A program made the translations under genes and the position numbers. This document shows, in pieces, positions 5,753 to 63,528 of a stretch of DNA of 64,000 nucleotides. This DNA comes from Novosphingopyxis sp. (GTDB taxonomy: Bacteria; Pseudomonadota; Alphaproteobacteria; Sphingomonadales; Sphingomonadaceae), in assembly GCF_965218915.1 (NCBI RefSeq), contig NZ_OZ244711.1, positions 8,529 through 72,528 on the forward strand, in the 5' to 3' direction. A model generated the notes under the pieces. It saw only the letters and a program-made list of their open reading frames with translations, made no database searches and was not told where the DNA came from. Positions within the stretch are counted from its first letter, which is position 1, and each line of letters opens with the position of its first letter.

Positions 5753-5763
5753 CGGAGGCCATC

Positions 5764-6828: not shown

Positions 6829-6939
6829 CGTGGGTGCGGCATGCGGTCGGCGGGGATGGGTTACCGTGAGCCATCCGGCCGGAGAGCCGCGCCCACGGCC
6901 TTCTGAGAGGGCGATCGGACCGGAGGCGGCCCGGGCCGG

Positions 6940-9684: not shown

Positions 9685-9687
9685 ATG

Positions 9688-9898: not shown

Positions 9899-10582
9899 TT
9901 GCTCATGCTCGCCGTTTCGGATTCAAGCACCGCCGCCGTCCAACATCTGGAGCACAATCCGCTCTACGAGCGCGTGTACCGGGAGCTCCGCCGCATGCTG
10001 ATGGAGGGCGCCTTCGCCCCGGGCGCGGAGCTGACGCTGCGCTCGCTGGCCGAGGGATTCGGTACCAGCGACATGCCGGTGCGAGACGCGGTCCGCCGCC
10101 TGATTTCGGAAGGTGCGCTGATCGGCCGCCCGAACCGGAGCCCGGTCGTGCGCCAGCTCACCCGCGTGCAATTCGAGGAGGTGCGGGACGTGCGCATGTT
10201 GATCGAGGGCGGGGCCACCGCCTCGGCGTGCGCCGCCTTATCTGCCGAGGGCTTGGCGAGGCTGCGCCAACTGCAACGTGACTTGAGCGGCGCGGAACCG
10301 TCTGATCTGGCCTTGCACCGCACCCTCAATCGGCGCTTCCACTTCACGATCTATGAGGCTTGCGCCATGCCGCTGCTGGTCTCGATGATCGAGACGCTGT
10401 GGCTGCAGGTCGGCCCGCTGTTCCGCAGCCTTTCCCTCCCGCTGCTCCGGCGAGACCTGCCGGACTATCATTGCCTGGCCGTAGACGCCCTGGCCGACCG
10501 CGACGCCGGAGCCGCTGCCGCCGCGATCCGCAACGATATCAGCGCCTCTGCAGCCGTCGTCCTGGCCAGCTCAGCGATCTGA
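9899..10582 (+). CDS. GntR family transcriptional regulator (FadR/FCD-type C-terminal domain)
   Basis: LYERVYRELRRMLMEGAFAPGAELTLRSLAEGFGTSDMPVRDAVRRLISEGAL is a GntR winged HTH. The helical C-terminal domain follows. The start may instead be ATG 9905. Confidence 0.85.
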   Translation: MLMLAVSDSSTAAVQHLEHNPLYERVYRELRRMLMEGAFAPGAELTLRSLAEGFGTSDMPVRDAVRRLISEGALIGRPNRSPVVRQLTRVQFEEVRDVRMLIEGGATASACAALSAEGLARLRQLQRDLSGAEPSDLALHRTLNRRFHFTIYEACAMPLLVSMIETLWLQVGPLFRSLSLPLLRRDLPDYHCLAVDALADRDAGAAAAAIRNDISASAAVVLASSAI

Positions 10583-13144: not shown

Positions 13145-13806
13145 ATCTGAGGTTGAATGGCGCGGGCGCGTTTGGCGATCTCGCCGACGATGCCTCGGCT
13201 GGCCCGGTTGGCAATTTGCTTTTGGATCGCTCGGACGCTGAGGTCGGTGGACGTTGCGAGGGCCTCGATCTCATTGATGACGCGCTGCGGCGTGCCGGGC
13301 CGCCCAAGGTGCCGGCCACGCGACTCAGCTGCTCTCATGCCGGCGGTGACGCGCTCGCTGATGAGCGATGATTCCAGCTCGGCCATGGCGCCGATGATGG
13401 TGAACATCGCCCGGCCCATCGGGCTATCGGTGTCGATCTGATCCTGGACGCTCACGAAGCGAACCCCGAGGTGATCGAACTCTTCCAGCGCCGCCAGCAG
13501 GTGGCGCGTGCTGCGGGCGAAACGGTCGAATTTCCACACCAGCACGCAGTCGATCTCTTGGTTGCGCGCGGCGGTCATGAGGGCGTTGAGCTGGGGCCGG
13601 CCCTCTCTGCGCCCTGACACGGCCACGTCGCAGTAATCCTGCACGATTTCGAGGCCGGCGCGCGCGGCATAGCCGCGCAGGCCGTCATACTGCAGGTCCG
13701 GCTTCTGGTCGGCGGTCGAAACCCGGAGGTAGAGGGCGGTGCGGGTGCCCTGGTGCGCCCTGGGTCCCGGGCGCTTGCGTCCAGAAAGGTATTCCTTCGC
13801 GGACAC
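13138..13806 (-). CDS. tnpR: Tn3-family resolvase (serine recombinase)
   Basis: ALYLRVSTADQKPDLQ (catalytic Ser region), VWKFDRFARS, and a C-terminal HTH. Start set at in-frame GTG 13806. The ORF-track ATG at 13902 would overlap tnpA. Confidence 0.85.
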   Translation of the reverse strand: MSAKEYLSGRKRPGPRAHQGTRTALYLRVSTADQKPDLQYDGLRGYAARAGLEIVQDYCDVAVSGRREGRPQLNALMTAARNQEIDCVLVWKFDRFARSTRHLLAALEEFDHLGVRFVSVQDQIDTDSPMGRAMFTIIGAMAELESSLISERVTAGMRAAESRGRHLGRPGTPQRVINEIEALATSTDLSVRAIQKQIANRASRGIVGEIAKRARAIQPQIL

Positions 13807-13882
13807 TGGACGGCCCCCTGCTAACCCCTTCAAACAACATAGCCTGCCCCGCCGCTTCGGCGCACCCTTTTCCGGACACCTC

Positions 13883-39120: not shown

Positions 39121-39267
39121 CGTCTGAATGCGACCAGTCCTTCACGCCTCGCCGGGTAAGCCGAGCTGGTCTGGTCGACATTCAATCTGAACAGGTAAGC
39201 TGCTGCGGAGTGCAGCGTCTTATGCAAATAGCACACAGCTTTTGATTTCTGGCCGTTACCGGTCGAG

Positions 39268-39474
39268 CCTCCTCATGGCCTGATCTGGCCGCAGGACGGC
39301 TGACGCCTCGATCGCCTCTGCCGCAATGGCGACCGGGTGGCTATTTTGCGCCGGCGCGAGTGCCGTTGCATCGCGAACCAAAATAGCCGCTCGGCCGCCA
39401 TCCTTCCGCTCCGCTTCGGCCTGCAAGCGCAGGTGCGTCGTCGATCGCCATCAGAGGCCGCGATGGGCGCGGTC
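39268..39474 (+). repeat. structured intergenic element, copy B (truncated at both ends)
   Basis: Contains the invariant box (39280-39314) and stem arms 39328-39347 / 39380-39399. Lacks the 5' leader and the RBS/ATG end. An internal direct-repeat deletion has removed TGCGGCCTG..GATCGCC. Confidence 0.65.
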
Positions 39475-39568
39475 ACCACCTGGAGCACTACGTGGCCGGC
39501 CTCGCACCCGCCCCATAAGCTGCAGCCGGCGTCTTGCTCGCTTTGCGTAACATGCTCATCATCCCGCC

Positions 39569-39905
39569 ATGCCGCACGTCATCGTCGAGTATTCCGCCAA
39601 TCTCGAGCCTGACCTGTGCCCGACGCGTCTGGTGCAGGCGCTTCCATCGAACCGCGCTGGACACTGGGGTATTCCCGATTGGGGGATTGCGGACGCGCGC
39701 GGAGCGACGTGACGTGTTCGTTGTCGCCGACGGGAACCCGGATAACGCATTCGTCGCCGTCCTAGCCCGCATCGGCGAAGGCCGCGAACCGTCGACCCGG
39801 CTCGCGGTCGCGCGCGCGCTGATGGCGACGCTGGAGGCCGAGACGGCCGCAGCCTTCGCGTCCCGCGGGCTCGGGCTGACCGTCGAGGTGCAGGAGATCG
39901 AGCGG
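39569..39905 (+). pseudogene. 5-carboxymethyl-2-hydroxymuconate isomerase-family gene with a +1 frameshift and a replaced 3' end
   Basis: MPHVIVEYSANLEPDL..RLVQAL (frame of ATG 39569) continues as HRTALDTGVFPIGGLRTRAERRDVFVVADGNPDNAFVAVLARIGEGR... in the frame of ORF 39534-40028. There is an extra base near 39643-39646, and family similarity ends about 39905. Confidence 0.55.
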
Positions 39906-40101
39906 GCAGAAGGTGGAGATGTATTCGAGGAGGCGTCCGAACGGGAACATCATCCGCTCGGTACTATCATCCTGCCGGACTTGACCGTTCACCCGGGTGG
40001 TGACGTGGAAGATGACGGCAATTGGTGATTCTGCTCCTAGCGGTATGCCGTAGCCGTGCTGATTAACGCCTTGGCGTGCCGTATGGGCTGACATGACCCC
40101 A

Positions 40102-40227
40102 CATGACCGGCAGATAGTTGTTCTGGAGCGGGCAGATTGGATGACCTGGCTCGAGCTGTCGCGGCCGGAAGCAGAACTGCTGCAACCCTTGCCCGCGGGC
40201 AGCCTGCATGTCGAACAGGTGCGGTAA
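40102..40227 (+). pseudogene. 3' fragment (last 41 codons) of a second, diverged SRAP peptidase gene
   Basis: HDRQIVVLERADWMTWLELSRPEAELLQPLPAGSLHVEQVR* aligns with the end of 8838-9416 (HDRQMVVLERADWLAWLELSRPEAELLKPLPAGSLHVEQVR*). DNA identity is roughly 80% by eye. Confidence 0.7.
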
Positions 40228-40524
40228 GCCGACACGGGGTCACCAAGCCCTCCCCTGCCGGTCAGGACACGCCCACGCTGCCTCCTCATGGCCTGATCTG
40301 GCCGCAGGACGGCTGACGCCTCGATCGACTTTGCCGCAATGGCGGCCGGGCAACTTTCTTCCCCTGCGCTGGCGCGCATTCCTCGCGATCCAAGAAAGCC
40401 GCCCGGCCGCCATCCTCCGCTCTGCTTCGGCCCACAAGCGGGTGCGTCGTCGATCGCCTGCGGCCTGCAGATCGCCATCGGAGGCCGCGATGGGCGCGGT
40501 CCCGAGACAACAGGAGAGAGCACC
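40228..40524 (+). repeat. structured intergenic element, copy C (most complete; reference copy)
   Basis: Invariant box 40293-40327, stem 40341-40360 / 40392-40411, second hairpin GCGGCCT/AGGCCGC, and RBS CAGGAGAGAGCACC before ATG 40525. Confidence 0.7.
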
Positions 40525-40836
40525 ATGGCGACCATCGGCACCTTCACCCGCACCAACGGCAGCTTCACCGGCGCGGTCAAGACCCTCAGCATTAACGCCA
40601 AGACCACGATCAAGCCCGCCGACAAGGCCAACGATCGCGCGCCCGACTACCGCATCCTCACGGGGTCTGCCGTGGAGTTCGGGGCCGCCTGGAAAAAGAC
40701 CTCCGGCGAGGGTCGCGAGTATCTCTCGGTCAAGCTCGACGACCCCAGCTTCCCCGCCCCGATCTACGCCACCTTGGTCGAAGCAGACGAAGCCGGCACG
40801 TTCAACCTGATCTGGTCCCGCCGCAACGGCGACTGA
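40525..40836 (+). CDS. DUF736 domain-containing protein
   Basis: 103 aa. [44 protein letters not shown]...[22 protein letters not shown] fits the DUF736 family. Start set at the ATG behind a good RBS. Confidence 0.85.
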   Translation: MATIGTFTRTNGSFTGAVKTLSINAKTTIKPADKANDRAPDYRILTGSAVEFGAAWKKTSGEGREYLSVKLDDPSFPAPIYATLVEADEAGTFNLIWSRRNGD

Positions 40837-43636: not shown

Positions 43637-44587
43637 ATGGCGCCCGCAAGAACGGCCAAACTCCCCTCCCCCGGCCGACTAATCGGCTACGCGCGCGTCT
43701 CTACCGAGGACCAAGATACCGATCCTCAGCTTGACGAACTCCGGGCTATCGGCTGCAGCACCGTGCTTGAGGAACACGCCTCCGGCGCGGACCGCAGCCG
43801 GCCCATGCTGGCCCGTTTGCTTCGCGAAATCCAACCTGGCGAGACCCTGGTTGTGGTCCGGCTCGACCGCCTGGCCCGCTCGGTCAGCCATCTACTCGCG
43901 GTGATCGAGCAGTTGGAGGGGAGCGGCGCCCATTTCCGCAGCCTGCGCGATCCGATCGACACCACGACGCCGCAAGGTATGTTCTCGCTCCAGGTGCTCG
44001 GCGCCGTGGCCCAGCTCGAGCGGGCGCTGATTGCCGAACGCACTAAGGCCGGGCTGAGCGCCGCCCGCAGCCGGGGCCGAGTTGGCGGTAATCCCGGGCT
44101 GCGGGCCGGTGACCCGGACGCGATCCGCAAGCTGCGGGCGAGGCGCGACGCCGGATACCTGGCCGACGTGCTAGCTGGGCTTGATGCCTGGCTGCCGACG
44201 ATACGCCGTATGCGCCCCAACCAGCCTTGGGGCGACGTCGTGCGGGTTCTCAATCACGACTACGACAGTACCTGGACGGTGGAGCGGCTCCGGCGAACCG
44301 TGCGCCGGCTCGTGACGGAGGGTATCATCGAGGCAACGTTGCTCGAGCGCTCGCGCCGTCAAAACGGTGACGACCGTCTTGTCAGGCTCATTGCGAACAT
44401 TGCGGCCGCTGCGCCGGACCGCACCCTGCAGCAGATCGCCACCCAACTCGAGGCGATGCGAGAACGTACGCCACGTGGTGGCACGCGCTGGCATCCCTCC
44501 TCTGTCAAGCACCTGCTCGCTCGGGCGCAACGGCTTGGGCTAGCGAGCATCACTCCCACGCAAGTCCGGACTAATCTCTGGCGATAG
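43637..44587 (+). CDS. serine recombinase (resolvase/invertase N-domain plus extended C-terminal recombinase-like domain)
   Basis: LIGYARVSTEDQDTDPQLDEL..., VVVRLDRLARS, GAVAQLERALIAERTKAG. The C-terminal part includes TPRGGTRWHPSSVKHLL. Confidence 0.85.
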   Translation: MAPARTAKLPSPGRLIGYARVSTEDQDTDPQLDELRAIGCSTVLEEHASGADRSRPMLARLLREIQPGETLVVVRLDRLARSVSHLLAVIEQLEGSGAHFRSLRDPIDTTTPQGMFSLQVLGAVAQLERALIAERTKAGLSAARSRGRVGGNPGLRAGDPDAIRKLRARRDAGYLADVLAGLDAWLPTIRRMRPNQPWGDVVRVLNHDYDSTWTVERLRRTVRRLVTEGIIEATLLERSRRQNGDDRLVRLIANIAAAAPDRTLQQIATQLEAMRERTPRGGTRWHPSSVKHLLARAQRLGLASITPTQVRTNLWR

Positions 44588-44868: not shown

Positions 44869-45129
44869 GGACACGCCCATGCCGCCTCTTGATGGGCTGA
44901 TCTGGCCGCAGGACGGCTGACGCCTCGATCGCCTCTGCCGCAATGGCGGCCGGGCGGCTATTTTCCGCCGGCGCGAGCGCCTTTGCATCGCGAAACAAAA
45001 TAGCCGCCCGGCCGCCATCCTCCGCTGCGCTATGGCCTGCACGCAGGTGCGGCGTCGATCGCCTGCGGCCTGTCGATCGCCATCGAGGCCGCGATAGGCG
45101 TGGTCCCGAGGGACAGACAGGAGAGCACC
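44869..45129 (+). repeat. structured intergenic element, copy D (perfect 20-bp stem)
   Basis: Invariant box 44897-44931. Stem GGCGGCCGGGCGGCTATTTT (44945-44964) / AAAATAGCCGCCCGGCCGCC (44997-45016). RBS CAGGAGAGCACC before ATG 45130. Confidence 0.7.
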
Positions 45130-45444
45130 ATGGCGACTATCGGGACCTTCACCCGCTCGGCCGGCGGCACCTTCACCGGCGCGGTCAAGACCCTCAGCAT
45201 CAACGCCAAGACCACGATCAAGCCGGCCGACAAGGCCAGCGACAAGGCGCCCGACTACCGCGTCTTCGCCGGGTCTAGCGTGGAGTTCGGCGCCGCTTGG
45301 AAGAAGACCTCCGGCGAGGGCCGCGCTTATCTCTCGGTCAAGCTCGACGATCCCAGCTTCCCGGCTCCGATCTATGCCACCCTGGTCGAGGGCGAGGAAA
45401 CCGGCAGCTACAGCTTGATCTGGTCCCGCCGCAACGGGGACTAA
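45130..45444 (+). CDS. DUF736 domain-containing protein (paralog 2)
   Basis: 104 aa. [45 protein letters not shown]... is about 80% identical to the 40525-40836 product by eye. Confidence 0.85.
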
Positions 45445-46381: not shown

Positions 46382-47047
46382 ATGAAGATCGTTGCAGTCG
46401 TGTCGCAGAAGGGAGGCGCCGGCAAGACGACACTGGCGCTGCACATCGCCGTCGCTGCCGAGCGCACGGGTTTGTCGGCGGCGATCCTGGATATGGACCC
46501 GCAAGGAACGGCCGAGCGATGGAGCGAATGGCGCAAGGAGGAACCGCCGGCGGTCGTAGCGGCCAAAGCAACCACGCTCAACCGCCGGCTCGAGCAGGCG
46601 AGGGCAGGGGAGGGGGATCTGGTGGTGATCGACACGCCGCCCCTGGCTCAGACCGAGGCGCGTGAGGCTGCCCGCATCGCCGACCTCATCCTGATCCCCT
46701 GCCGGCCCTCCGCGTTCGACCTCGACGCCATCCGCATCACGGCCGACCTGGCGAACGACATCCGCAAGCCGGCCTTCGTCGTGGTGAACGCCGGGCCGCC
46801 GCACGGAACGGCCGTCTACAAGGACGTCGCCGAGACCGTAGAGCGCTTCGGGCTGCGAGTGGCGCCGACACGCCTCGCGGAGCGCGCAGCCTTTCGGCAT
46901 GCCGTCCGAGAAGGCAAGTCGGTGCAGGAGCTGGAGCCCGATAGCCGGGCGGCCGAGGAAGTCGCGTTGCTCTGGGAATGGATTGCAGGACAACTTGGCA
47001 TCCCCCAATCCCGCAATCCGGCAATCCGCACGAAAGCTGAGGCATGA
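46382..47047 (+). CDS. parA: ParA-family partition ATPase
   Basis: MKIVAVVSQKGGAGKTTLALHIA is a deviant Walker A. DLVVIDTPP is Walker B. Confidence 0.9.
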   Translation: MKIVAVVSQKGGAGKTTLALHIAVAAERTGLSAAILDMDPQGTAERWSEWRKEEPPAVVAAKATTLNRRLEQARAGEGDLVVIDTPPLAQTEAREAARIADLILIPCRPSAFDLDAIRITADLANDIRKPAFVVVNAGPPHGTAVYKDVAETVERFGLRVAPTRLAERAAFRHAVREGKSVQELEPDSRAAEEVALLWEWIAGQLGIPQSRNPAIRTKAEA

Positions 47048-47570: not shown

Positions 47571-48482
47571 ATGAACCTGATTATGGCTGAAGTGCATCGA
47601 TTGATTGCGCAGAAGGGTGTCGAGGAGGCTCGCCGACAGGCGATCACCAAGCACGAGCGGGTGATCGTCGAGGCGGCGTACCAAGTTCTCAGCGAAGAGG
47701 CCGACAAGCTGGGGTTCACCTACTCCGGCTTCGCCCTGACGTCGCTTCCGCACAAGCCGCAAACGGACATGGTCTGGCGTCGGGAAGGTCATAATCTAAC
47801 GATGCTGGTCCAGAGCGGCGTCGACCGGTCGGGTGCGGCGCTTGGCGTTCCCTACGGCTCCTACGCGCGCTTCATCCTGCTGTTCTTGCAGAGCGAGGCG
47901 ATCAAGACCGGCAGCCGGGAGATCGAGCTGGGCCGGTCGATGCGTGTTTGGCTCGGGAACATGGGGCTCTCGATCGGCGGAACGACCTATCGGCTCGTCA
48001 ACGAACAGGCCCGGCGGATTTCCGGCTGCACACTGACCTTTTACGCCGATCGCGACCACAAGGAGATCATGCGTCGCGGCGGCTTCGTCGATGGCGCAAT
48101 CACGATGGCGGACATGGCGGGAGATCAGCCAAGCCTCTGGCAGGAGCGGGTGCTGCTCAACGAGGAATTCCATCGAGCGCTGCAGAATCACCCCGTGCCG
48201 CTCAGCGAAGCCGCGCTGCGAGCGATCGGCCCGCGGAGCATGGTGCTCGACATCTACATCTGGCTCGCCTACCGCCTGCACGCCTTGAAAACCGACGTTG
48301 AGGTATCGTGGCCGTCGCTCTACGCTCAGTTCGGCGCCGGCTACGGGCGACTTAGAGATTTTCGCGCGGGTTTCCTGGCAGGCCTGGAACTCGCCGTGGC
48401 CGTTTATCCTGAAGCTCGTATCGGACTTGACGATCACGGGGTGGTACTAAGGCCATCCCGACCGGCGGTCGCCAAGTCTTAA
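47571..48482 (+). CDS. repA: plasmid replication initiator RepA (RPA-type family common on alphaproteobacterial plasmids)
   Basis: 303 aa. FTYSGFALTSLPHK...GVPYGSYARFILLFLQSEAIKTGSREIELGRSMRVWLGNMGLSIGGTTYR matches the plasmid-encoded RepA family as I recall it. Flanked by iterons. Confidence 0.8.
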   Translation: MNLIMAEVHRLIAQKGVEEARRQAITKHERVIVEAAYQVLSEEADKLGFTYSGFALTSLPHKPQTDMVWRREGHNLTMLVQSGVDRSGAALGVPYGSYARFILLFLQSEAIKTGSREIELGRSMRVWLGNMGLSIGGTTYRLVNEQARRISGCTLTFYADRDHKEIMRRGGFVDGAITMADMAGDQPSLWQERVLLNEEFHRALQNHPVPLSEAALRAIGPRSMVLDIYIWLAYRLHALKTDVEVSWPSLYAQFGAGYGRLRDFRAGFLAGLELAVAVYPEARIGLDDHGVVLRPSRPAVAKS

Positions 48483-52163: not shown

Positions 52164-55100
52164 GTGCTGACCTACGCCACCATCGCCGCGGGATCGGGGG
52201 CAGGGGGTAAGGCGCTCGCCGAATACCTGCTGCAGACGCTTCCGGTCGAGCGAGCGGACCTGGCGAGCTACTATCAGCGCGGGATGCGTCCCGACCTGGC
52301 CGGCACGCTGGGCGATGACACCTTTGCGGCCGAGGCGACCCTGCTGGTGAAGCAGGGCACGAGGCTGGACGATCTGCCAGACGCGCTCGACGCTGCCGTG
52401 CAGCGCCGCCATGCCGGGTTCGTAGAGCGCTACCTGGCCGGCGAGCGCGCAATCCCGGAGGGCGAGGCTCTGGCGCGTCTCGCCGAGCACGTGGTGACCT
52501 CGGGCAACCCGGCCGACGAGGCCGAGACGGTTCTCACGCGCTTGCGCGAGGCGGCTTCGGACGCGGCCGAAAGTGATCGCATCGTCCAGGCCTTTCGGGA
52601 TGCCGAGAGCGCCGCGTTCTATCGCCGCGACAAGGTGCTCGAAGCCGTGGAGCGCGGCCTCTACGGGCACAGCACGGCCGAGCCGAGGCGGGACATGCAC
52701 CCGCACTTGGGCGAGATGCTTGGGCTGGACTCGCACCGCGTTCCCACGGCCGACGAGATCGGCCACATCCTCTCCGGGCGCCGCGCGAACGGCGAGGAGA
52801 TCGAGGGCAAGTCGCGACAGAAGGGGACGGTGAGCCTGTCCGATGCGCTCGGACTCGACTCCTCGCGTCCACCGACATGGGACGAGATCAGTCACATCCT
52901 CGACAGGCGCCGGGCGGATGGGACGCCGATCGCCGGGCCGGGCACTGAGACAGCGCGGCATCGCTTTCTGGATCTGCTGGGCGTGAGGGCGGCCGAGCCT
53001 GACCAGAACCAGGTGCGACACCTGATGGCCGGGCGCATGGTGGACGGCAGCGAGCTGGACACCGACGCGTACCGGCGTGGCGTGGAGGCGAGCAAGGCAC
53101 GGATCGCGGCGGTGGACCTGACGTTCTCGGCCGACAAGTCGGTGTCCATCGCCTGGGCGCTCGCGCCGACGGAGGCGGAGCGGAACATGCTCGCCCAGGC
53201 GCACAAGGACGCCGTGGCGAGCACCATGGCCGTGATCGCGGACGAGCTGGGACACGCGCGCCGCGGCAAGGCCGGGAGTGGCGGAACGGAAGCCGGGCAC
53301 ATCACTTGGCTGGGCTTCGACCACTACGCGAGCCGGCCCGTCGTGCCGGTGGCGCGGACGGACGCGCAGGGCAATCCCTACACGGAACTGCTCAGCTTCG
53401 GCGCGGCCGGGGACCCGGCGCTGCACAGCCATATGCTCGTGCCGTCCGTCGTGATGACCGACACGGGCCGGGTCACGTCGCTCGACTTGGACACGATGGC
53501 GGGCAAGACGCACACCTGGGGCGCGTTCTACCAGGCGTTCCTCGCGACGAACCTCAAGCGCCTCGGCGTCGAGGTCGGGTTGGACGAGCGCACGGGCGCG
53601 GCGCGGCTGTCCGCTATCCCCGAGAACGTGCGGGACGCCTACTCCAAGCGCACGAGGGACGGCACGGAGGCGGCGCGCGAATACGCTGCGACCCAGGGCA
53701 AGGACTGGGACAGCCTCTCTGACCGGCAGAAGGTTGGCCTGGTCCACGCCAGCACCCAGGCCCGGCGCCGAGCGAAGGACGCGGCCGGCGGCAACCAAGA
53801 GGATCGCGTGGCCGATTTCGTTGCCTGGGAGCGGCAGGCCAAGAGCATGGGCTACGCGCACAAGAGCGTGCTGGGCGCGACGCCTCCGCCTGCGCCGAGC
53901 CGCGACGATCGGCTCCAAGGTGCCTACCAGACTGCGTTGCGGCTCCTGGACAAGGTGTTCGTCGGCACGGCGAAGGTGGACGGGGAGAAGCTGCGGGAGA
54001 TCGCCGCGCGCGGTCTCATCACGACGTCGATGGAAGATGTCACCGACGTGAAGGCCGTCACCCGCGCCTTCGCTACACGGGGCGTTCGCCAAGATGGGCG
54101 GGATGTCGCTCTGATCTGGGGCGAGGACCCGGCCGTGCGCGGCAAGGCCCGGATCGGCGTCACCACGACGCTGCACGAGGCGCAGGAACAAGAGGTTGTG
54201 GCCGGGTTGCGGGCAGCGGCCGGGGACAGGTCCGCCGCGCTCTCCAAGCGCGCCATAGAGGCCGCCGTGACGCGAAGCGGGCTGACCTTCGACGGCGAGC
54301 ACGGACGGGCGCAGCGGGCGGCAATCGATGCGCTTGGTACGGGCGGACGCTTTGCGGCGTTCATCGGAGCGGCCGGAGCGGGCAAGAGCAGCGTCTTGCG
54401 TCCGCTGGTCGATGCTTGGCGCCAGGACGGCAAGCGCGTGTTCGGGACCGCGCTGGGAAATAACCAGACGGACGCGCTCGAGGACGCCGGCATCAAGGCT
54501 GCGGATCGAGCGGCGCTCGATCCATTTCTCAAGCAAGCGGCGGCAGGCAGATTCGAGCTGGCTCATGACTCGGTGGTGGTGATCGAGGAGGTCGGGCGCG
54601 TCGGCACGCGACAGCTTCGCGAGCTGATGCGGCTGCAAGGCGAGCTCGGGTTCAAGGTTGTCGCGGTCGGCGATCCCGAGCAGCTCCAGAGCATCGAGGC
54701 GGGGCACGTCGTCGGGCTCATGCGCCGCGCCCTGGGCGAGAACGCCATCCCGGAGATCGCCACCACGCTGCGGCAGCGGACGGACGAGGAGAAGCTGACG
54801 ACGAGCTTGTTCCGAGAGGGGCAAGCGGCGGAGGCGATCGAGCGCAAGCGCATGGACGGGACGGCGATCCTCGTCGCCGGTGATCACACGGCGGTGGTCG
54901 AGCGGGTCGCGGCGCTCTGGCGCGAGCGGATCGAGATCGGCGCCGAGGTGACGGTCAGCGCGCCGACGAACGCGGACGCCCGCGCCGTTGCCCTCGCCAT
55001 CCGCGAGCAGCGCCGCGCCATGGGCCAGATCGGTGCCGATCTGGTGAGCGTCGACGCGACCAGCCGGAGTAGGTTCAACGCCGGCGTGGGCGAGGACTAC

Positions 55101-55985
55101 GACATGCGGCTCGCGGCGGGGGATCGCGTTCGGCTCTACGAGCGCGCCACCGCCACCTTCTCGGCAACGGACGGCTCGGGACGCACCACGCACGGCAACA
55201 TCGGCAATAACGGGTCGGTGCTGGAGGTGCGCGGCATCACGCCGGAAGGCCTGGCGCTCCGCAACGTCGCCGGGCGCGAGGGCCTGGTTCGCTGGGAGAC
55301 GCTGCGCGACCAAGAGAGCGGCCGCATCCGGTTGGGCTGGGGAGACGCGCTCACCATCGATGCGGCGCAGGGCAGCACGGTCGGCCAGCACATCCTCGCC
55401 ATGCCGAGCGGCTCGGCCGGCGTGAACGGCTACCAGGGCTACACGGCGGGGAGCCGGCATCGCGATGAGACGCTGATGGTGGTCGGGGATGCAGCGGAAC
55501 GCCGGGAGATTACAGCCCGGCGGCCGCGAGGTGACTTCCGGCCGATCGGCGAGGGAGACGTGTGGGAGAACGTCGCGCAAAACCTCTCGCGTAAGCCGGA
55601 ACGCTCGTCGGCGCTCGCCTTCCTCGATCGCGCGGTCAACGTGCGTCGCGGCACGGTGCGGGCCTTCCAGGGCGAGCTGGAGCGCATGGAGCGGCGGCAG
55701 GCCGAGGGAAAGGCGCCGACAGCAGAGGCCAAGGCACGAGGCCAGGCGAGCGCTGCGAGGGAAACCGTCCGGCGGCATAGGGCGGCAGCGCAGGAAGCGG
55801 TAGCACGCCCGGAAAGATCTGTACGGGCGCGGATGGCGAAGGTGGCGCGGCGGGTAAGGCCGGCCCTGGATCGAGCGCGGAAAGCGGCACGCAAGCTGCG
55901 CGAGGTGGCCGGATGGGCGAACTGGGGGCTTCGTGGCGCTTCGGAGCAGCGACGTCATGAGCGTAACGCGGGACGCCGGCGCTAG
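52164..55985 (+). CDS. MOBF-type conjugative relaxase/helicase (TrwC/TraI-like)
   Basis: 1273 aa with a GTG start. N-terminal Tyr pair (LASYYQRG), His triad AAGDPALHSHMLVPSV, helicase Walker A FIGAAGAGKSSVL, and VVVIEEVGRV / VAVGDPEQLQSIEAG motifs. Confidence 0.9.
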   Translation: MLTYATIAAGSGAGGKALAEYLLQTLPVERADLASYYQRGMRPDLAGTLGDDTFAAEATLLVKQGTRLDDLPDALDAAVQRRHAGFVERYLAGERAIPEGEALARLAEHVVTSGNPADEAETVLTRLREAASDAAESDRIVQAFRDAESAAFYRRDKVLEAVERGLYGHSTAEPRRDMHPHLGEMLGLDSHRVPTADEIGHILSGRRANGEEIEGKSRQKGTVSLSDALGLDSSRPPTWDEISHILDRRRADGTPIAGPGTETARHRFLDLLGVRAAEPDQNQVRHLMAGRMVDGSELDTDAYRRGVEASKARIAAVDLTFSADKSVSIAWALAPTEAERNMLAQAHKDAVASTMAVIADELGHARRGKAGSGGTEAGHITWLGFDHYASRPVVPVARTDAQGNPYTELLSFGAAGDPALHSHMLVPSVVMTDTGRVTSLDLDTMAGKTHTWGAFYQAFLATNLKRLGVEVGLDERTGAARLSAIPENVRDAYSKRTRDGTEAAREYAATQGKDWDSLSDRQKVGLVHASTQARRRAKDAAGGNQEDRVADFVAWERQAKSMGYAHKSVLGATPPPAPSRDDRLQGAYQTALRLLDKVFVGTAKVDGEKLREIAARGLITTSMEDVTDVKAVTRAFATRGVRQDGRDVALIWGEDPAVRGKARIGVTTTLHEAQEQEVVAGLRAAAGDRSAALSKRAIEAAVTRSGLTFDGEHGRAQRAAIDALGTGGRFAAFIGAAGAGKSSVLRPLVDAWRQDGKRVFGTALGNNQTDALEDAGIKAADRAALDPFLKQAAAGRFELAHDSVVVIEEVGRVGTRQLRELMRLQGELGFKVVAVGDPEQLQSIEAGHVVGLMRRALGENAIPEIATTLRQRTDEEKLTTSLFREGQAAEAIERKRMDGTAILVAGDHTAVVERVAALWRERIEIGAEVTVSAPTNADARAVALAIREQRRAMGQIGADLVSVDATSRSRFNAGVGEDYDMRLAAGDRVRLYERATATFSATDGSGRTTHGNIGNNGSVLEVRGITPEGLALRNVAGREGLVRWETLRDQESGRIRLGWGDALTIDAAQGSTVGQHILAMPSGSAGVNGYQGYTAGSRHRDETLMVVGDAAERREITARRPRGDFRPIGEGDVWENVAQNLSRKPERSSALAFLDRAVNVRRGTVRAFQGELERMERRQAEGKAPTAEAKARGQASAARETVRRHRAAAQEAVARPERSVRARMAKVARRVRPALDRARKAARKLREVAGWANWGLRGASEQRRHERNAGRRR

Positions 55986-57788: not shown

Positions 57789-59651
57789 CTATTCGGCCGC
57801 CTCGGCGGGAATCGCCGAGTGGACTGGGCGTCGAACAAATCGATTGTCGCCGGCGATGCTGTTCTCCCACTCGCGGCGAAAATAGAGCGGTACGCCACAG
57901 CGGATCGGGGCGCAGCCGGCGGCTAGGACGAACATCTCGTCGGCGCGCGCCTCGCGGATCTCGTCGGGCTTGATAAGGCTGCGCTTGATTTCGTGACGGT
58001 TCGTGTTCCGCCCGCGCGAGCGCGTGCCCAGCTCGAAGCCCTTGTTCGACGTGCCCCGGTTGTCGCCCTCGCTAGTGGCCTGCACGCCATGTTCGCCGAT
58101 TTCCTTGGACAAGGACTCTTGCGTGCGGCGATCCAGCACTCGCGCATAGCCGCGCCAGGACAGGTTCGGGAACCACAGGTCGCAACCAGCCTTGCCGCGG
58201 CGGCCCCAGACCTCGTCAATTTCGGTCTCGGACAGATGCGGGAGGTGCAACGTGGCGCCGTATTTGCGGCCGGTGTCGCGCAGCAGCTCGAAGGCGACCA
58301 CGCGCCCGATAGTGCCCATCTCGTCCGGGATGATAAGGGTACGGCTGTGATAGTTCCCGTTCGCCTCGATGAAGGCCCAGGCAAAGGCGTCCAGCGCAGC
58401 CCGAACGATACCCGGGGAGAACTTGAGCGCATCAAACCCGACGTGGATGTAGACCGTCGTCGGGCGCTCGGTGATCTCGCGCGGCGACAAATCCGTGCCG
58501 GAAAGGAAGTCGGCGGCCGCGTCGTCCAGCATCCAGCGCGTGAGCTGAGTGGCGGAGAAGTAGGCGCCGCTGAACGTCTCCTCGGCCAGGCCCATGAGCG
58601 TCCTGGCACCGAGCTTGGCGGCCGTGCACGGGCTGATCGCCGCGATCCCGGCGAGGAGATTTTTCATGTCCTTCTCAGCCGTCGTGATGAGATCGCGCAG
58701 GGTGCGCAGGTTGCGGTGGTGGCGGGGCACGCTTTCGTCCCAGAGCATGTGACCGAGCAGCGCGGCCACCATGTTCCGCCCGGCGTCGTCGAAAATGCTG
58801 TCGGCGTCGCGGTCGCGCTCCTCGCCGCACAACGAACCGACGACGGAGAGCACGCGCCTCGTGGCGTTGGGAGATTTGGGGTCGATGCCGCCCAGCAGGT
58901 CAAGGGCATCGCCCCCGAGAGCAATCCGGATTACACGATTGCCCATCGCCTCGCGCGCGCTCTGGGTCAGGTCGGCGATTTCGTCCGACGGGTCGACGAC
59001 GATGGCGGAGCCACGCCAGTGCATCAGGCGCGTGGCGATGGAGGCGGTCTTTCCGCCGCCGCTGCCGGAGACGAAAATCGAGTGCGTCGGCCCCTCGATG
59101 CACGGATCGACCAGGAGCGGCACCTGGCCGCCGGGTCCCCAGGTTGCTTTGTCGCGCGACCTGAACTCGAGCGCGCCAACCTCGGACAGATCCATGCGGA
59201 CGGCCTCGCCGATGACAAGGAAGGGCTCGCCAGACGGGTCGGGCTGGAAGCGGTCCCGGGCCTCGTTCATTGGCAGCCAGTCGGCATGGCCATGATTGTC
59301 AGTGTCGGCCCGCTCAATGGGCTTCACCGGCTTCCGCATGCCGACCGCGAGCAGGCGGCTCCAGCGCAGGGCGCGGAGCCGTGCGAAGATCGCGGCCACG
59401 ATGAGGAGGGCGGCAACGCTCGGCAGGAACGCGGCGGCGATGAGCGCGCCTAGCAGCTTGGGGGCACCGCGCGCGTACGGCAGCGCGTCGTACCAGAGCG
59501 TGAGTTCCCACTCCAGGCGTACCCGGCCAAGGCCATAAGTGTTGCTCAGATAGGCGAACAGGTAGCTCGAGGCCGCGAGCCAGCCGAGCGCGAGCAGCAG
59601 CGGGACGGCGACGACGGCGACGGCCGCTGCAATCAGGCCGCGGCGGCGCAT
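57789..59651 (-). CDS. virD4: type IV coupling protein (VirD4/TraG/TrwB family)
   Basis: 620 aa with two N-terminal TM segments, Walker A FVSGSGGGKTAS and Walker B-like TLIIPDEMG. Confidence 0.9.
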   Translation of the reverse strand: MRRRGLIAAAVAVVAVPLLLALGWLAASSYLFAYLSNTYGLGRVRLEWELTLWYDALPYARGAPKLLGALIAAAFLPSVAALLIVAAIFARLRALRWSRLLAVGMRKPVKPIERADTDNHGHADWLPMNEARDRFQPDPSGEPFLVIGEAVRMDLSEVGALEFRSRDKATWGPGGQVPLLVDPCIEGPTHSIFVSGSGGGKTASIATRLMHWRGSAIVVDPSDEIADLTQSAREAMGNRVIRIALGGDALDLLGGIDPKSPNATRRVLSVVGSLCGEERDRDADSIFDDAGRNMVAALLGHMLWDESVPRHHRNLRTLRDLITTAEKDMKNLLAGIAAISPCTAAKLGARTLMGLAEETFSGAYFSATQLTRWMLDDAAADFLSGTDLSPREITERPTTVYIHVGFDALKFSPGIVRAALDAFAWAFIEANGNYHSRTLIIPDEMGTIGRVVAFELLRDTGRKYGATLHLPHLSETEIDEVWGRRGKAGCDLWFPNLSWRGYARVLDRRTQESLSKEIGEHGVQATSEGDNRGTSNKGFELGTRSRGRNTNRHEIKRSLIKPDEIREARADEMFVLAAGCAPIRCGVPLYFRREWENSIAGDNRFVRRPVHSAIPAEAAE

Positions 59652-60643
59652 GCAGCCAAATCCTCCTCGGCCTTAACCCAGACCTGGGGCGCGCTGAACC
59701 CGTCGTCGCCGCGGGCGAGCCACACCACGATGTCGAGGTAGCGGCGCAGAAGCGAGCGGGCCTTGCTGTCGGGAAGGGTCGCCGCACCCGCGTGCTGCTT
59801 GAGCATGAGCTCCAACGCGTCGAACGCCTCGCCTTCCTCCGCATGCCAGCTCGTCATGCCGCCGGGGTGCCCGGCGGCGAGCGCCTGAATGAAGGCGAAC
59901 GCCTCCGGTCCGCGGCACTCCTGCAGCATGATGCGGTCCGGCCGCATGCGCCGGGCGGCGCGAACGCAGTCCTCGGCCGAGATACCGGGCTGGCCAGGCT
60001 CGGCGAAAAACAGGGCGACGTGGTTGCGTTGCCGGAGTGCGCCGAACTCGTCGGCGTCCTCGGCTGTGACGATGCGCTCGCCCTCGGGGATCTCCTGCAG
60101 CAGGCGCTTAATAAAATCGGTCTTGCCGCTGCCGGTCGCGCCGCAAGCGCCGATCGTGCGGCGGCTGCGCACGGCAAGCTTCCAGAACTCGCGCCACCGC
60201 TGCGCGCGTTTCAGCTCGATCAGGGCCAGATCATGAGCCGTTGAACGCGGTGCGCCGGCACGGGAGAACATCCCCTCGAAGTCGGGATCGTCCACGCGAC
60301 GGGCGACGGTGGCGGGCTTCCGGACAGTCAGGGAGATGACGCCTTGCCGCGTTGCTTTGGGACGGCACGCCTGCAATCGCTCGCCATCGGGCAGGGTGCC
60401 GCGGGCGAGCGGATGCTTGTCGTCGAACTCGGCGCCGGCGGAGTGGGCGGCATAGACGGCGATGGTCTCGATCCGTTCGAACGTGGCCGCCGGAGCATCG
60501 TGCCAGGTCCAGATCCCGTCGCGCTCTACCCCGATCTCGCCGGGCCGGTTGACAACGACTTCCGTGGTCAGCGGATCCGCGAGGGGTGTACTAAGGCCAC
60601 AGACATCCAGCAGCCGGCGGAGCGGGCGTTCGCCGGGTCTCAC
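59633..60643 (-). CDS. virB11: VirB11-family T4SS ATPase
   Basis: Start at GTG 60643 (GTGA overlap with the virB10 stop). Walker A GATGSGKTDF, RIVTAEDADEF, and His-box QECRGPEA. Confidence 0.9.
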   Translation of the reverse strand: MRPGERPLRRLLDVCGLSTPLADPLTTEVVVNRPGEIGVERDGIWTWHDAPAATFERIETIAVYAAHSAGAEFDDKHPLARGTLPDGERLQACRPKATRQGVISLTVRKPATVARRVDDPDFEGMFSRAGAPRSTAHDLALIELKRAQRWREFWKLAVRSRRTIGACGATGSGKTDFIKRLLQEIPEGERIVTAEDADEFGALRQRNHVALFFAEPGQPGISAEDCVRAARRMRPDRIMLQECRGPEAFAFIQALAAGHPGGMTSWHAEEGEAFDALELMLKQHAGAATLPDSKARSLLRRYLDIVVWLARGDDGFSAPQVWVKAEEDLAACAAAA

Positions 60644-61755
60644 CTTCCGGTCTCCGAGAGCGCGTAGGCGTCCGAGAAGTCGATGGGCTGCGCGACCAGC
60701 AGGCCGATGCGCGAACCTTGGTTGACCCGGAGCGTGTTGCGCACATTGGCCGAGTTGCGGATCACCTCTGCAAGCGCGTAGTCGATGCCGCCCACATTGA
60801 TGTTGGTGTAGCTGCTGCCGCGCTGCTGCAACGCCGTTTGCGCGGCACCGATCGCGCCCTGCGTGGTGAGCAGGACCAGGGCTGAACCGATGCGCGCCCA
60901 AGGATGAGTATCCAGCTCGCCGTCGAAGCCACCGCGGCCCAGGCCATCGCCCATGGGGAAGCTCCCGAGCGGCACGGGGACGCCGTTTGGGGTGATGGCG
61001 TAGCCTGCGACGGCGCCGACGCGGTTCTCACCAAGGCCGATGTCGCTCTGGTAGTCGCCGACGATGCGGGTTCCGGCCTCCATCAGCTTGACGCCCAGAG
61101 GCGAGTAAACCGTTTCGTCGGTATGACAGAACACCTTGCCGGGCTTGGTGGTGTCGAGGGCGTTGTCGAGCAGGCACGTCACCACGCCCGGCATCATTGT
61201 AAAGGTCATGTCCATCGCCGGGCCGGCCTTGAGGCCGGGGATGGCAGTGGGCTTGAATGCAACGGTGCTCTTACCGGCCTCGGCTCCTGTCCGATTAGGG
61301 CCAGCTTGCGGCGCCCCTTCGGGCTGAGACCTGTCACGCGGGAACGCTCCAGGCGTGAAGGTCAGCATTCGGGGCGGGCGAGGGCCAGTAATCTCTGATC
61401 TACTCGGAGCGCCGGGGGGTGGCCCGAAAGCATCGCGGACTTGGGGCGGCGGCGGAGCCGGAGGGGGCGGGGCCAGGTTCACCGGCGGCATGGCGTTCGC
61501 CACCGGAACGATACTGCGACGAAACTCGGGCGTGGGCACGAACTGGCCGAGCTGCTGCCCGACCGCAGAGGCGTGCCTGACCGGCGTCTTGTGGGCGTCG
61601 CGCCAGAACACGAAGCCAACGACGACGGCGCAGCCCACGGTCCAGAGGGCGATCAGGCGCCAGCCGGACCGCCAGCGGCGGAAGCGGCCGCCACGCGAAC
61701 GTCCCCGTTCGGACTGCTCGCGTTCGTCCCGATCGTTGGGCGGGTCAACGGCCAC
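60640..61755 (-). CDS. virB10: VirB10/TrbI-family T4SS protein
   Basis: Start at GTG 61755. TM segment (LIALWTVGCAVVVGFVF), Pro-rich linker (PPPPAPPPPQ), and a C-terminal TrbI barrel (GTRIVGDYQSD...GFDGELDTHPW). Confidence 0.85.
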   Translation of the reverse strand: MAVDPPNDRDEREQSERGRSRGGRFRRWRSGWRLIALWTVGCAVVVGFVFWRDAHKTPVRHASAVGQQLGQFVPTPEFRRSIVPVANAMPPVNLAPPPPAPPPPQVRDAFGPPPGAPSRSEITGPRPPRMLTFTPGAFPRDRSQPEGAPQAGPNRTGAEAGKSTVAFKPTAIPGLKAGPAMDMTFTMMPGVVTCLLDNALDTTKPGKVFCHTDETVYSPLGVKLMEAGTRIVGDYQSDIGLGENRVGAVAGYAITPNGVPVPLGSFPMGDGLGRGGFDGELDTHPWARIGSALVLLTTQGAIGAAQTALQQRGSSYTNINVGGIDYALAEVIRNSANVRNTLRVNQGSRIGLLVAQPIDFSDAYALSETGR

Positions 61756-62797
61756 GGCCGGCGCTCCTGAGCACGCGCCTGACACCGGGCGAGACGGTTC
61801 CGGTGCCCGGATCAGCCAAGCCGCCCGTCGCGGGGTTGATACCGGCCGGGTTGTAGGCGCGGTTGAAGATGTAGAGCGCGGTCTGGCCTGAGTAGAGATG
61901 CATCTCCTTGGCCACCCGCGGCACGACAAGTGTGTCACCGCGCATGAAGGGAATGAGCGCCTGCTCCTTGCCATCCGGTCCGAGCACGAACACCGAGGGC
62001 GGCCGAAGCTGGCCCTGGTAGCGCAGGAACGTCATCTGGCCGTTGTCGCACACGGACACGGGGGCGATGGCCGCGCTGCCCCAACCGACGTAGCGAGGGT
62101 TGCAGGCCGGGCCGAGTTCGCCGGCTGTTTCCGGACCGGTGCCGGCGGCAGCAAGGGAGGTGCGCGCCTGCGCTTCACGAGCGGCAGCTTGGCGCTGTTG
62201 CGCCAACGCGATCCTTACTTGGGAGGCGGCCTGAGCTTTCATTGCCTGCTCGGCGCGCTCGACTTCACTGTTTTTCACGATTAGGCCGAACGTGGCCTCC
62301 GGGGCGTCCTCACTCCCCGCCGTCCCTTCGGCACGTGCGCCCGCGCCGGTCGAGGCAAGCGAGGCAGTGACGCCGGAGGGCTCCGGCGGCGCCGGAAGCG
62401 CGGTCAGGTCGAACTGGTAGGGGTATTCGTGGCCATCCGCGTCCACTGTGGTGACGACGAGGTTCGTGTGGCCGGGCTGCACGGGCCAGAGAGGCAAGTT
62501 GTTCTTGAGCGCCATGGCCTGACCGTTGCCGCTGGCTTGCGGACCTTCCCAGATCCCTGCGGTGCCGAAAGCGACCCGGTAAATCGCTTCCTTGGGGTTG
62601 AAGGTGATGTTCGCGACGCGGCCGACGACTCCTGTCAGCCGAATGCGCTTGAGCGGCGATGCGGTCACGGCCTGCATGTGATCGGTAGGACCGGCTGTTG
62701 GCTGCGGGGCAGGGGAGGTGGCGCCGAAGACAGCGGCAGGGGTCGCGAAGGCGGTCCCCGCAGCGAGAGCGAAGGAAAGCGATGCCCGCGTGGTCAT
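61745..62797 (-). CDS. virB9: VirB9/TrbG/CagX-family T4SS protein
   Basis: Start ATG 62797 (ATGA overlap with virB8). Signal peptide, NLVVTTVDADGHEYPYQFDL, and C-terminal DNGQMTFLRY...LVVPRVAKEMHLYSG. Confidence 0.8.
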   Translation of the reverse strand: MTTRASLSFALAAGTAFATPAAVFGATSPAPQPTAGPTDHMQAVTASPLKRIRLTGVVGRVANITFNPKEAIYRVAFGTAGIWEGPQASGNGQAMALKNNLPLWPVQPGHTNLVVTTVDADGHEYPYQFDLTALPAPPEPSGVTASLASTGAGARAEGTAGSEDAPEATFGLIVKNSEVERAEQAMKAQAASQVRIALAQQRQAAAREAQARTSLAAAGTGPETAGELGPACNPRYVGWGSAAIAPVSVCDNGQMTFLRYQGQLRPPSVFVLGPDGKEQALIPFMRGDTLVVPRVAKEMHLYSGQTALYIFNRAYNPAGINPATGGLADPGTGTVSPGVRRVLRSAGRGR

Positions 62798-63528
62798 GCG
62801 TCTCCGCTCCGATAGTCGAGGCACTGGAAGCCGGTCAGGTTAAGCGACCGGTCGTCGTCGCTGACGGCCGCCAGGTCAGGACGCCAGACGAAGGTCACGA
62901 CGGCTTCGTAGGGCTTGGCGGCGAGTTGCGCGCCGCCGACGATTTCAGTCCGCTGGAACGTCACGCGCCAGACCTGGGCGTCGCCGGATCGTCCCAGCGG
63001 CCAGAACTGGAACCTGTCCACCACGACGCTGGTCTGGTTGCGGTATTTCGCGGCCGGCGAGCGCGGATTCTTGGGCGAGAGCTCGTCCGCGAACCGGGCC
63101 TGCATGGCTGGGTCGGACATCACCGCGATCTGGTGAAAATTGAGCGCGTAGGCGTCCGGGATGTAGGTCTCGGCCGCGGCGATCAGCTTGCGGAGGTCTG
63201 CCTTGGCCTGTTGCTCGCCAAACAGCGTCCGTGGTGCATCCTTCGCCAGCACGGACGGAGCGACTTGCTGCGAACCGAGGTCGAACGGCACGAATTTCAC
63301 CTCCGTCGTCTTGAGCGGGAAGAGCGACGCGGCGGCGACGATGCCAGCAACACCGATGAGCGTGCCGGCGGCGCCGACGATGTAGCCGCCGACGCGAATC
63401 GCGCGGCGGTTGGCCCTGATCTCCTGGTCGAGCGCCTTGCCCTGCTCGTAGAACTCCTGGCGATCTTCCGCTTCGAGTTCTCCGGCGGCAGTCCAGCCGC
63501 CCGGCGGCGAGGGAACGGCGCCACTCAT
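62794..63528 (-). CDS. virB8: VirB8-family T4SS protein
   Basis: 244 aa. A single TM segment (GYIVGAAGTLIGVAGIVAAASLF) followed by an NTF2-like periplasmic domain (..YIPDAYALNF..VVVDRFQFWP..VWRVTFQR..). Confidence 0.8.
   Translation of the reverse strand: MSGAVPSPPGGWTAAGELEAEDRQEFYEQGKALDQEIRANRRAIRVGGYIVGAAGTLIGVAGIVAAASLFPLKTTEVKFVPFDLGSQQVAPSVLAKDAPRTLFGEQQAKADLRKLIAAAETYIPDAYALNFHQIAVMSDPAMQARFADELSPKNPRSPAAKYRNQTSVVVDRFQFWPLGRSGDAQVWRVTFQRTEIVGGAQLAAKPYEAVVTFVWRPDLAAVSDDDRSLNLTGFQCLDYRSGDA

Follow-up and report, generated by a model that had tools for sequence, protein, structure and literature searches.

Single-stranded DNA promoters of the Frpo/ssi type have been described in IncF and IncI1 plasmids, where they fall into classes 1-3 (Masai & Arai 1997; PMC11541004; PMC12672017) defined by a -35 (TTGACA) and -10 (TATAAT) pair in the stem. 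A screen of pESBL for such promoters applied a folding energy below -75 kcal/mol per 300 nucleotides (nt) (PMC12672017). Experimentally shown single-stranded promoters come only from enterobacterial IncF and IncI plasmids with Escherichia coli-type hexamers, and sequence-based candidates exist in a few other elements. Here we analyzed a 64,000-nt stretch of DNA from the alphaproteobacterium Novosphingopyxis sp. (assembly GCF_965218915.1, contig NZ_OZ244711.1, positions 8,529 to 72,528 of the forward strand; hereafter the window), in which a 35-nt sequence, CTGATCTGGCCGCAGGACGGCTGACGCCTCGATCG, recurs as part of a conserved element of about 240 nt lying ahead of DUF736 and DUF2493 genes. We propose, at a probability of roughly 0.45, that this element is a Frpo/ssi-like single-stranded DNA initiation element on the transferred strand of a conjugative replicon.

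The element shares several properties with Frpo/ssi promoters. Both are large stem-loops (about 250-330 nt), occur as several dispersed paralogous copies of the same orientation per plasmid, and lie directly upstream of leading-region genes (ssb, psiB, ardA, and klcA there; ardC, DUF736, and DUF2493 here). The co-orientation of these genes makes the transferred strand the template, a property that is presumptive in our case, and the single-stranded DNA energies pass -75 kcal/mol. The two also differ: the element has no sequence similarity to Frpo/ssi and no recognisable -35/-10 hexamers, is GC-rich, is built around a four-way junction with C-GNA-G mini-hairpins, and belongs to alphaproteobacterial hosts, and its activity is putative. 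It would therefore resemble Frpo/ssi in function while failing two of their defining features, hexamers and homology, and its novelty is conditional on the single-stranded DNA reading. On that condition it may, somewhat more tentatively, represent a previously undescribed class: a transferred-strand fold with d(C-GNA-G) mini-hairpins round a conserved four-way junction, without canonical -35/-10 boxes.

The 35-nt sequence within a 240-nt element

The exact copies of the 35-mer start at 9478, 39280, 40293, and 44897 of the window, all on the + strand, confirming the four identical copies noted by an earlier sequence-only reading of this DNA. Chance predicts none (0 matches in 100 dinucleotide shuffles), and allowing up to three mismatches adds no further match in the window. 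Alignment shows that the 35-mer is embedded in a block of about 240 nt common to all four neighbourhoods, its exact extent being the stretch where longer, nearly identical tracts coincide. Between copies A and C (Table 1), identity is 86.5% in the 3' end of the SRAP coding sequence (40102-40227; previously estimated at about 80%), 96% in the 23 nt preceding the 35-mer, 100% in the 35-mer, 58-79% in the element middle, where copy A carries a deletion, and 100% in the last 54 nt (40471-40524); across roughly 100 nt surrounding the 35-mer it is about 97%. In both copies the upstream stop codon lies only about 40 nt ahead of the element. A 19-nt segment that pairs with the 35-mer, GTCGATCGCCTGCGGCCTG (40448-40466), is identical in copies A, C, and D and deleted in B. 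Together with a divergent paralogue, E, the window holds five copies of the element, all on the + strand, of which A and B are decayed and C and D intact.

The element matches 535 PLSDB plasmids at 60-90% identity (mostly 60-80%), in genera including Agrobacterium (Ti/Ri plasmids), Rhizobium, Bradyrhizobium, Sinorhizobium, Mesorhizobium, and Methylocystis, and most of these records are typed conjugative. We also compiled 80 DUF736 loci, one genome per species, from Rhizobiales, Sphingomonadales, Caulobacterales, Rhodobacterales, Rhodospirillales, and Acetobacteraceae. Upstream of DUF736 the element was found in 62 of them by blastn and in nearly all by profile search, always ending at the start codon. 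A gene-independent metagenome scan with the core motif CCGTCCTCCRCTNNGYTNCGGCC returned 120 loci, in which the gene downstream of the profile matches was DUF736 (50), YAcAr/DUF2493 (57), or ArdC (9); the ArdC-type members keep the junction motifs and hairpin P9 and have a very short P5 arm. The homologues fall into a few major clades, so these sequence counts overstate the number of independent events.

Relative to copy C, 122 homologues from other genomes showed 71% identity in the 35-mer, 69% in the whole element, and 73% in the DUF736 coding sequence. That the element is about as conserved across genera as the adjacent protein gene supports a non-coding sequence under purifying constraint, in line with what had been claimed for the 35-mer block. 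The companion claim, that the box is better conserved than the coding DNA beside it, holds within the window and fails among these foreign homologues; a lack of differential conservation in other genomes, which the sequence-only reading had named as evidence against a distinct site, is in part what we observed, since the 35-mer is no better conserved than the element around it. The 35-mer is not a stand-alone or special site; it is part of the 240-nt structured element. Identity within the window exceeds that across genomes, indicating that duplication or conversion contributes to the exact 35-mer, whose exactness here reflects stem constraint together with recent duplication or conversion among the copies. 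A truncated duplicate of the SRAP 3' end (40102-40227) adjoins copy C, and the relic copy B is joined to a CHMI-family gene (39266-40028) that has oxidoreductase cargo next to it; with the Tn3-family transposase and the resolvase, they point to rearrangements that duplicated the element-DUF736 module.

A search of the whole window against Rfam 15 gave no match at the gathering threshold, nor did eight related loci, and three copies searched at permissive E-values also gave none. A gntR-DTE (RF02989) candidate reached 25.5 bits against a threshold of 63.6, in copy C only (40439-40550, minus strand), and was dismissed as a chance match given its absence at D and E. In the searchable literature we found no description of the element, no mention of an upstream element in papers on DUF736, and nothing covering single-stranded promoters in Alphaproteobacteria. 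The sole match in a phage collection lies at 5259-5468 of GenBank MT837770.1, a 6.2-kb 'Bacteriophage sp.' contig (70.7% identity, 80% of the element covered) that probably comes from a plasmid and was binned with the phages.

The element is predicted to fold as a unit of about 240 nt, a rod that pairs its two ends and in which P1-P6 form a long imperfect inverted repeat. The 35-mer (40293-40327) supplies the 5' strands of P2a, P2b, and P4 and the complete P3 mini-hairpin, and 40448-40466 supplies their 3' partner strands P4' and P2b'; what had been taken for a discrete sequence-specific box is the 5' half of three helices plus a mini-hairpin. No block is more conserved than hairpin P9 (40483-40501; GGCCGCG-ATGGG-CGCGGTC). 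Near-invariant unpaired stretches (CGCAACGGC, GUCCUCCRCU, and GGGUGC) line the junction, and the peripheral stems vary in length.

Helices P1a-P9 were assigned by hand, following the copy C fold, on a 40-sequence alignment, and the pairs were then counted. Compensatory changes were present in 36 of 62 pairs, compared with 12-20 when partners were slid by 1-3 columns, and the covariation score was 0.255 (0.055-0.084 in the slid controls). Paired cells amounted to 88.1% (34.7-50.1% in the slid controls), a value inflated, more so than the compensatory counts, by deriving the structure from one of the aligned sequences, copy C. None of 500 shuffles matched the observed pairing values. The alignments were sequence-based (MAFFT/HMM), and RNAalifold on the raw MAFFT alignment recovered only 22 pairs. 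Positions within the 35-mer covary across genera, as at 40296/40472 in P2a (AU 20, GC 15) and 40301/40464 in P2b (AU 19, GC 16), as do the only two pairs of P8a (GC 25/AU 15 and CG 36/UA 4). The YAcAr-type family, aligned separately, has the same architecture with compensatory pairs of its own, including one P6 pair that is AU 23, UA 12, GC 2, and CG 1. With compensatory change this frequent, it is largely the pairing of bases that is under constraint.

YAcAr-type homologues (e.g., L133:2543-2783, L132:2198-2438, and L203:2616-2856) combine an invariant junction core with a P7 apex enlarged by insertions, which reach about 60 nt and contain GC-rich hairpins of their own, e.g., CCACGCGGC...GCCGCGTGGGG.

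Table 1. Element copies, copy C helices, and genes of the window
Feature	Position	Strand	Remarks
Copy E	about 6887-7137	+	Divergent full-length paralogue without the exact 35-mer; nhmmer E about 1e-28 (homologue-built profile)
Copy A	9453-9688	+	Relic; 24-nt internal deletion of P6/P7; DUF736 reduced to first codons
Copy B	39266-39474	+	Relic; 19-nt deletion of 3' partner strands; no P9, no gene
Copy C	40268-40524	+	Intact (nhmmer; folds; pair counts)
Copy D	44872-45129	+	Intact; 35-mer at 44897-44931
P1a	40281-84/40481-84		Copy C
P1b	40288-92/40474-78		Copy C
P2a	40295-98/40470-73		Copy C; 5' strand GATC
P2b	40300-08/40457-65		Copy C; 5' strand GGCCGCAGG
P3 mini-hairpin	40311-13/40318-20		Copy C; loop TGAC; antisense GGC-GTCA-GCC
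P4	40322-27/40451-56		Copy C; 5' strand CGATCG
P5	40339-51/40401-13		Copy C
P6	40354-60/40392-98		Copy C
P7			Variable apex
P8a	40419-20/40424-25		Copy C
P8b	40430-33/40440-43		Copy C
P9	40485-89/40495-99		Copy C
ParB-N protein	3535-5655	+	Pfam
DUF7146-Toprim	5764-6828	+	Pfam; immediately upstream of copy E
YAcAr/DUF2493 (SLOG)	about 7135-8073	+	Pfam; behind copy E; ATG aligns at about 7135, same register as C and D
SRAP	8838-9416	+	Pfam
GntR/FCD	9899-10582		After copy A
Tn3-family transposase	13739-16855	+	Pfam
CHMI family	39534-40028		After copy B
DUF736	40525-40836	+	Behind copy C; Pfam PF05284, E=1.7e-36
Serine resolvase	43637-44587		Pfam; the recombinase near the copies
DUF736	45130-45444	+	Behind copy D; Pfam, E about 1e-36
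ParA	46382-47047	+	Pfam
RepA_C	47571-48482	+	Pfam
TrwC-type relaxase	52164-55985	+	Pfam; same strand as all five copies
Coupling protein	57789-59651	-	Pfam
VirB11-type ATPase (T2SSE domain)	59633-60901	-	Pfam
VirB9-like (CagX domain)	61745-62824	-	Pfam

The strand that folds

Folding energies, loop sequences, and wobble positions favour the gene-antisense (minus) strand as the one on which the rod folds. Antisense was the more stable strand in 81 of 85 homologues, by a mean of 11.5 kcal/mol with RNA parameters and 7.7 kcal/mol with DNA parameters. Corrected against dinucleotide shuffles, the mean z was -3.22 for antisense and -2.22 for sense, with antisense lower in 33 of 40 (p = 2.5e-7); the corresponding values were -8.50 and -6.71 for copy C and -6.82 and -4.74 for copy D. 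The consensus folding energy of the alignment was -132 kcal/mol for antisense and -119 kcal/mol for sense. Copy C folded to -128.6 kcal/mol (z -5.5) as sense RNA and to -87.8 kcal/mol (z -8.5) as antisense DNA. When 260-nt segments were folded at 1,594 sliding positions, copies D (-90.6 kcal/mol), C (-91.5 kcal/mol), and E (-97.9 kcal/mol) were among the top four minus-strand segments, E giving the most stable single-stranded DNA fold in the window. As single-stranded minus-strand DNA the copies span -86.5 to -97.9 kcal/mol, past the cutoff of the pESBL screen.

Averaged over 171 elements, the antisense strand carries 4.25 C-GNA-G motifs and the sense strand 1.04. On the antisense strand, P3, P8a, P8b, and in many cases the apex of P7 form G-N-A triloops with a C-G closing pair. 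P8a on that strand has one of four sequences in 120 of the 171 elements, with itemised counts of 74 for GCGCAGC, 16 for ACGAAGT, 13 for GCGAAGC, and 9 for ACGCAGT, and these never occur as such on the sense strand. Antisense P3 fits GGCG(C/A/T)AGCC in 70 of 124, with GGCGCAGCC (29), GGCGAAGCC (27), and GGCGTAGCC (4) as the itemised readings. Mini-hairpins of the heptamer d(GCGNAGC), studied by Hirao, Yoshizawa and colleagues, are reportedly exceptionally stable in DNA, which would explain why a two-pair 'helix' such as P8a covaries.

In the rod, wobbles of the sense A·C type, equivalent to antisense G·T, outnumber G·U (315 vs. 130), sit at fixed positions, and follow a G-C/A·C/A-T exchange pattern; a tandem AA/CC in P2b is retained in both paralogue families. 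P9 is the only helix with clear sense-strand G·U wobbles (70 G·U vs. 16 A·C), which makes folding in the mRNA probable for this hairpin. A matching helix-by-helix split is seen in the YAcAr-type family.

A candidate single-stranded DNA initiation element and its alternatives

Copies C and D end 20-30 nt ahead of the ribosome-binding site and ATG of DUF736 genes, and in copy C the ribosome-binding site is GGAGAGAG, followed by the ATG at 40525. ParB-N, Toprim, ArdC, and SRAP genes neighbour the element. Across the 80 loci, relaxase homologues within 4 kb of DUF736 are co-oriented with it in 12 of 13 cases and nearly all lie downstream; TraF (10/10), ArdC (13/13), and ParB (39/39) are likewise co-oriented. 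In pTiKerr27, which like pGDIPal5II shares this layout, one strand carries ParB-N ... ArdC, a hypothetical gene, the element, and DUF736 in that order, followed by traG/D/C on the other strand and then traA; the origin of transfer, unannotated in the record, presumably lies between traC and traA. The backbone of pGDIPal5II runs on one strand from DUF2493 to DUF736, repA, parA, traF, a second DUF736, a transglycosylase, and the relaxase, and a Methylocystis plasmid matches the order of the window (ParB, Toprim, DUF2493, element, DUF736). ArdC of R388 is required in the recipient, not in the donor (PMC7213743). Since all copies are co-oriented with the relaxase gene, and the relaxase gene enters the recipient last (PMC11541004), the minus strand is likely to be the transferred strand. 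DUF736-type genes would then point towards the origin of transfer, so that their template, which is also the best-folding strand, should be the strand transferred.

In the proposed mechanism, the plasmid or integrative conjugative element (ICE) would arrive in the recipient as single-stranded DNA, on which the P1-P6 inverted repeat would snap back to a rod, nucleated by the C-GNA-G mini-hairpins of P3, P8a, P8b, and the P7 apex. The duplex-like rod would launch RNA synthesis into the adjacent gene, in the manner of the Frpo/ssi promoters of IncF and IncI plasmids, giving a transcript whose first features are the P9 hairpin and a strong ribosome-binding site. Synthesis of the complementary strand would then prevent the hairpin from forming and so end the signal. 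We infer the start of RNA synthesis in the hairpin and the timing of expression, and the acting enzyme would be host RNA polymerase or the neighbouring Toprim protein.

In favour of this proposal, no ordinary promoter was found ahead of the element: a sigma-70-like site is missing between -160 and +20 in all of 122 homologues, and from the element and its flanks in the window. Several observations weigh against it. Neither scans nor inspection showed -35/-10 hexamers reconstituted in the stem. The only promoter-like traces seen by inspection are an A/T tract in P6 and an invariant TTG, which corresponds to CAA in CGCAACGG on the other strand; a manual search of either arm found no alphaproteobacterial CTTGAC-N17-CTATAT or ECF-type GGAAC-N16-CGTT at conserved spacing. 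A blastn search of 5,426 complete E. coli genomes with their plasmids, F and IncI included, returned no match. The identity of the transferred strand in element-bearing plasmids derives from a general rule, and the multi-helix junction with invariant unpaired motifs has a typical functional-RNA look. Helices P1a, P6, and P9 carry sense-type wobbles. Summed across mostly Watson-Crick pairs, G·U and A·C hardly differ (164 vs. 177) and tell the strands apart only when counted helix by helix, so the strand call draws on energies, loop motifs, and wobble positions instead of a global excess. Of the earlier suggestion that the 35-mer is a promoter, a role in starting gene expression survives as the leading idea.

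Priming signals of the G4 and RSF1010 type are likewise stable single-stranded DNA hairpins, and theirs recruit primase. In the window a Toprim gene directly precedes copy E, and Methylocystis has one in the corresponding place. The element always ends about 20-30 nt before a start codon, a constant spacing that priming signals do not require, and no primase recognition motif is known for the element family.

The best-surviving alternative, which we consider unlikely yet serious, is that the element acts on the sense strand as the 5' untranslated or intercistronic region of DUF736, YAcAr, and ArdC mRNAs, a four-way-junction RNA controlling translation or stability. The invariant CCUCC could, for example, mask the ribosome-binding site, or GAGG and P9 could form a switch, and a protein or other signal would read the conserved junction. 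Like riboswitch-like or protein-binding leaders, the element lies just 5' of coding sequence, combines near-invariant unpaired junction motifs with variable peripheral helices and covariation, and has a hairpin adjoining the ribosome-binding site, to which, as to the ATG, its spacing is constant in all three gene contexts. An anti-Shine-Dalgarno-like GUCCUCC can pair with GAGG (model positions 213-216, with U·G variants), the wobbles of P9, P1a, and P6 are of the sense type, and tight packing behind co-oriented upstream genes fits read-through transcription. The absence of a promoter-like site upstream in all 122 homologues speaks against a leader, though read-through from upstream genes may still transcribe it. 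What also counts against a sense-strand leader is the near-equality of G·U and A·C, where typical RNA families have a G·U excess, and the A·C at fixed positions of the rod where G·U would be expected. The sense loops are U-N-C without a known stabilising motif, the 2 bp of P8a are too few for an RNA hairpin, and it is the opposite strand that has the stabilising loops and, in nearly all homologues, the better fold. No Rfam family matches, and the genes served are conjugation-establishment genes, not metabolic ones.

A minus-strand transcript of the rod, acting as a FinP-like cis-antisense regulator of the downstream gene's leader or start, or at some loci as a leader towards the upstream DNA, would account for the better fold and G-N-A loops of that strand, and some of the loci do have conserved non-coding motifs immediately ahead of the element. 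We regard it as improbable: the scans showed neither a minus-strand promoter-like site downstream of the rod nor a terminator-like site at the opposite end, and no intrinsic terminator at all, and a near-perfect rod of about 100 bp would be a substrate for double-strand RNases. Two-base-pair GNA mini-hairpins are a feature of DNA rather than RNA, and the upstream neighbours vary by locus (SRAP, Toprim, and hypothetical genes).

More improbable again is that the 35-mer works as duplex DNA, whether as an operator for the ParB-like, recombinase, or DUF736 protein, as a recombination or attachment core, or as a conventional promoter, which are roles the sequence-only reading had suggested. Its four exact copies in the window, the palindromic CGATCG, and the recombinase genes nearby would suit such a site. 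Outside the window, as described above, it enjoys no special conservation over the element as a whole, and its variation is compensated by the distant 3' strand, which a duplex binding site would not need. We found no evidence for an operator; hundreds of replicons preserve both structure and sequence along the 240 nt, always with the same spacing to a start codon and with no tie to element boundaries, and sigma-70 hexamers are missing. Integron attC sites, which function as folded single-stranded DNA, resemble the element in occupying consecutive intergenic regions and in being imperfect hairpins with extrahelical features. They keep structure only and are tied to cassette 3' ends, whereas the element keeps structure and sequence and is tied to gene 5' ends. 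An attachment core also finds no support in the gene content or alignments: there is no IntI integrase (the Pfam recombinase near the copies is a serine resolvase) and there are no R''/R' core boxes (RYYYAAC/GTTRRRY). Lastly, a passive repeat, with copies that are recent duplications or gene-conversion tracts lacking a function of their own, would suit the decaying relics A and B beside rearranged cargo and a Tn3-family transposase and the higher identity within the window than across genomes, and is nonetheless hardly credible, being already contradicted by the same placement in 535 plasmids and in nearly all of the 80 plus 120 loci across alphaproteobacterial orders, and by widespread compensatory substitution.

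Neighbouring leaders and biological implications

The window is a conjugative replicon (Table 1), and it carries further structured sequences. Directly upstream of the SRAP gene lies a separate large AT-rich stem-loop (8608-8815, about 50% GC) with 33-nt arms, 8608-8640 and 8783-8815, that are 91% complementary. Its single-stranded DNA z of -8.5 makes it one of the two strongest folding outliers of the window; it contains no sigma-70 hexamers and has no homologue in the fetched loci, and it could be an entry hairpin of a different class or else an inverted repeat with no such role. Another repeated leader, about 90 nt long and unrelated to the element (2115-2210 and 3449-3528, 74% identical), precedes the open reading frame 2204-3400 and the ParB-N gene, with a hairpin CCGTGACGG...CCGTCACGG just before GGAGA-ATG; loci L131, L193, and L105 have two homologues each (alignment A4). 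Weaker single-stranded folding outliers (z about -2.6 to -3.0) at 5681-5940, 1761-2020, and 361-620 sit upstream of the Toprim gene and other + strand open reading frames, in the putative leading region.

Some of the DUF736 loci (L094 ~1200-1260, L156, L191, L133, L164, L108, and L002 ~3660-3720) have a conserved motif pair, CCTCTTGTGCGG-N(11-20)-CGCCACGTCTTCTCC, 30-80 nt upstream of the element. Indel lengths not divisible by three, together with an in-frame stop in L191, ruled out a small divergent gene as its source; the pair may serve as a conventional promoter or operator when the genes are expressed in the donor.

If the element were an mRNA leader, it would be a large, widespread, and uncatalogued structured leader new to Rfam. 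Should it be a single-stranded DNA initiation element, as we propose, an unrelated, hexamer-less, and GC-rich counterpart of Frpo/ssi would be conserved across Alphaproteobacteria, making the head-start strategy general and implying a different way of recruiting transcription or priming machinery. The model of about 240 nt would then show where leading regions and early genes lie, be it in Ti plasmids, symbiosis islands, or environmental plasmids. DUF736 has no homologue in the PDB. For the proteins themselves, the shared element suggests that DUF736 and DUF2493, both very common and of unknown function, join ArdC in the class of early-establishment proteins.

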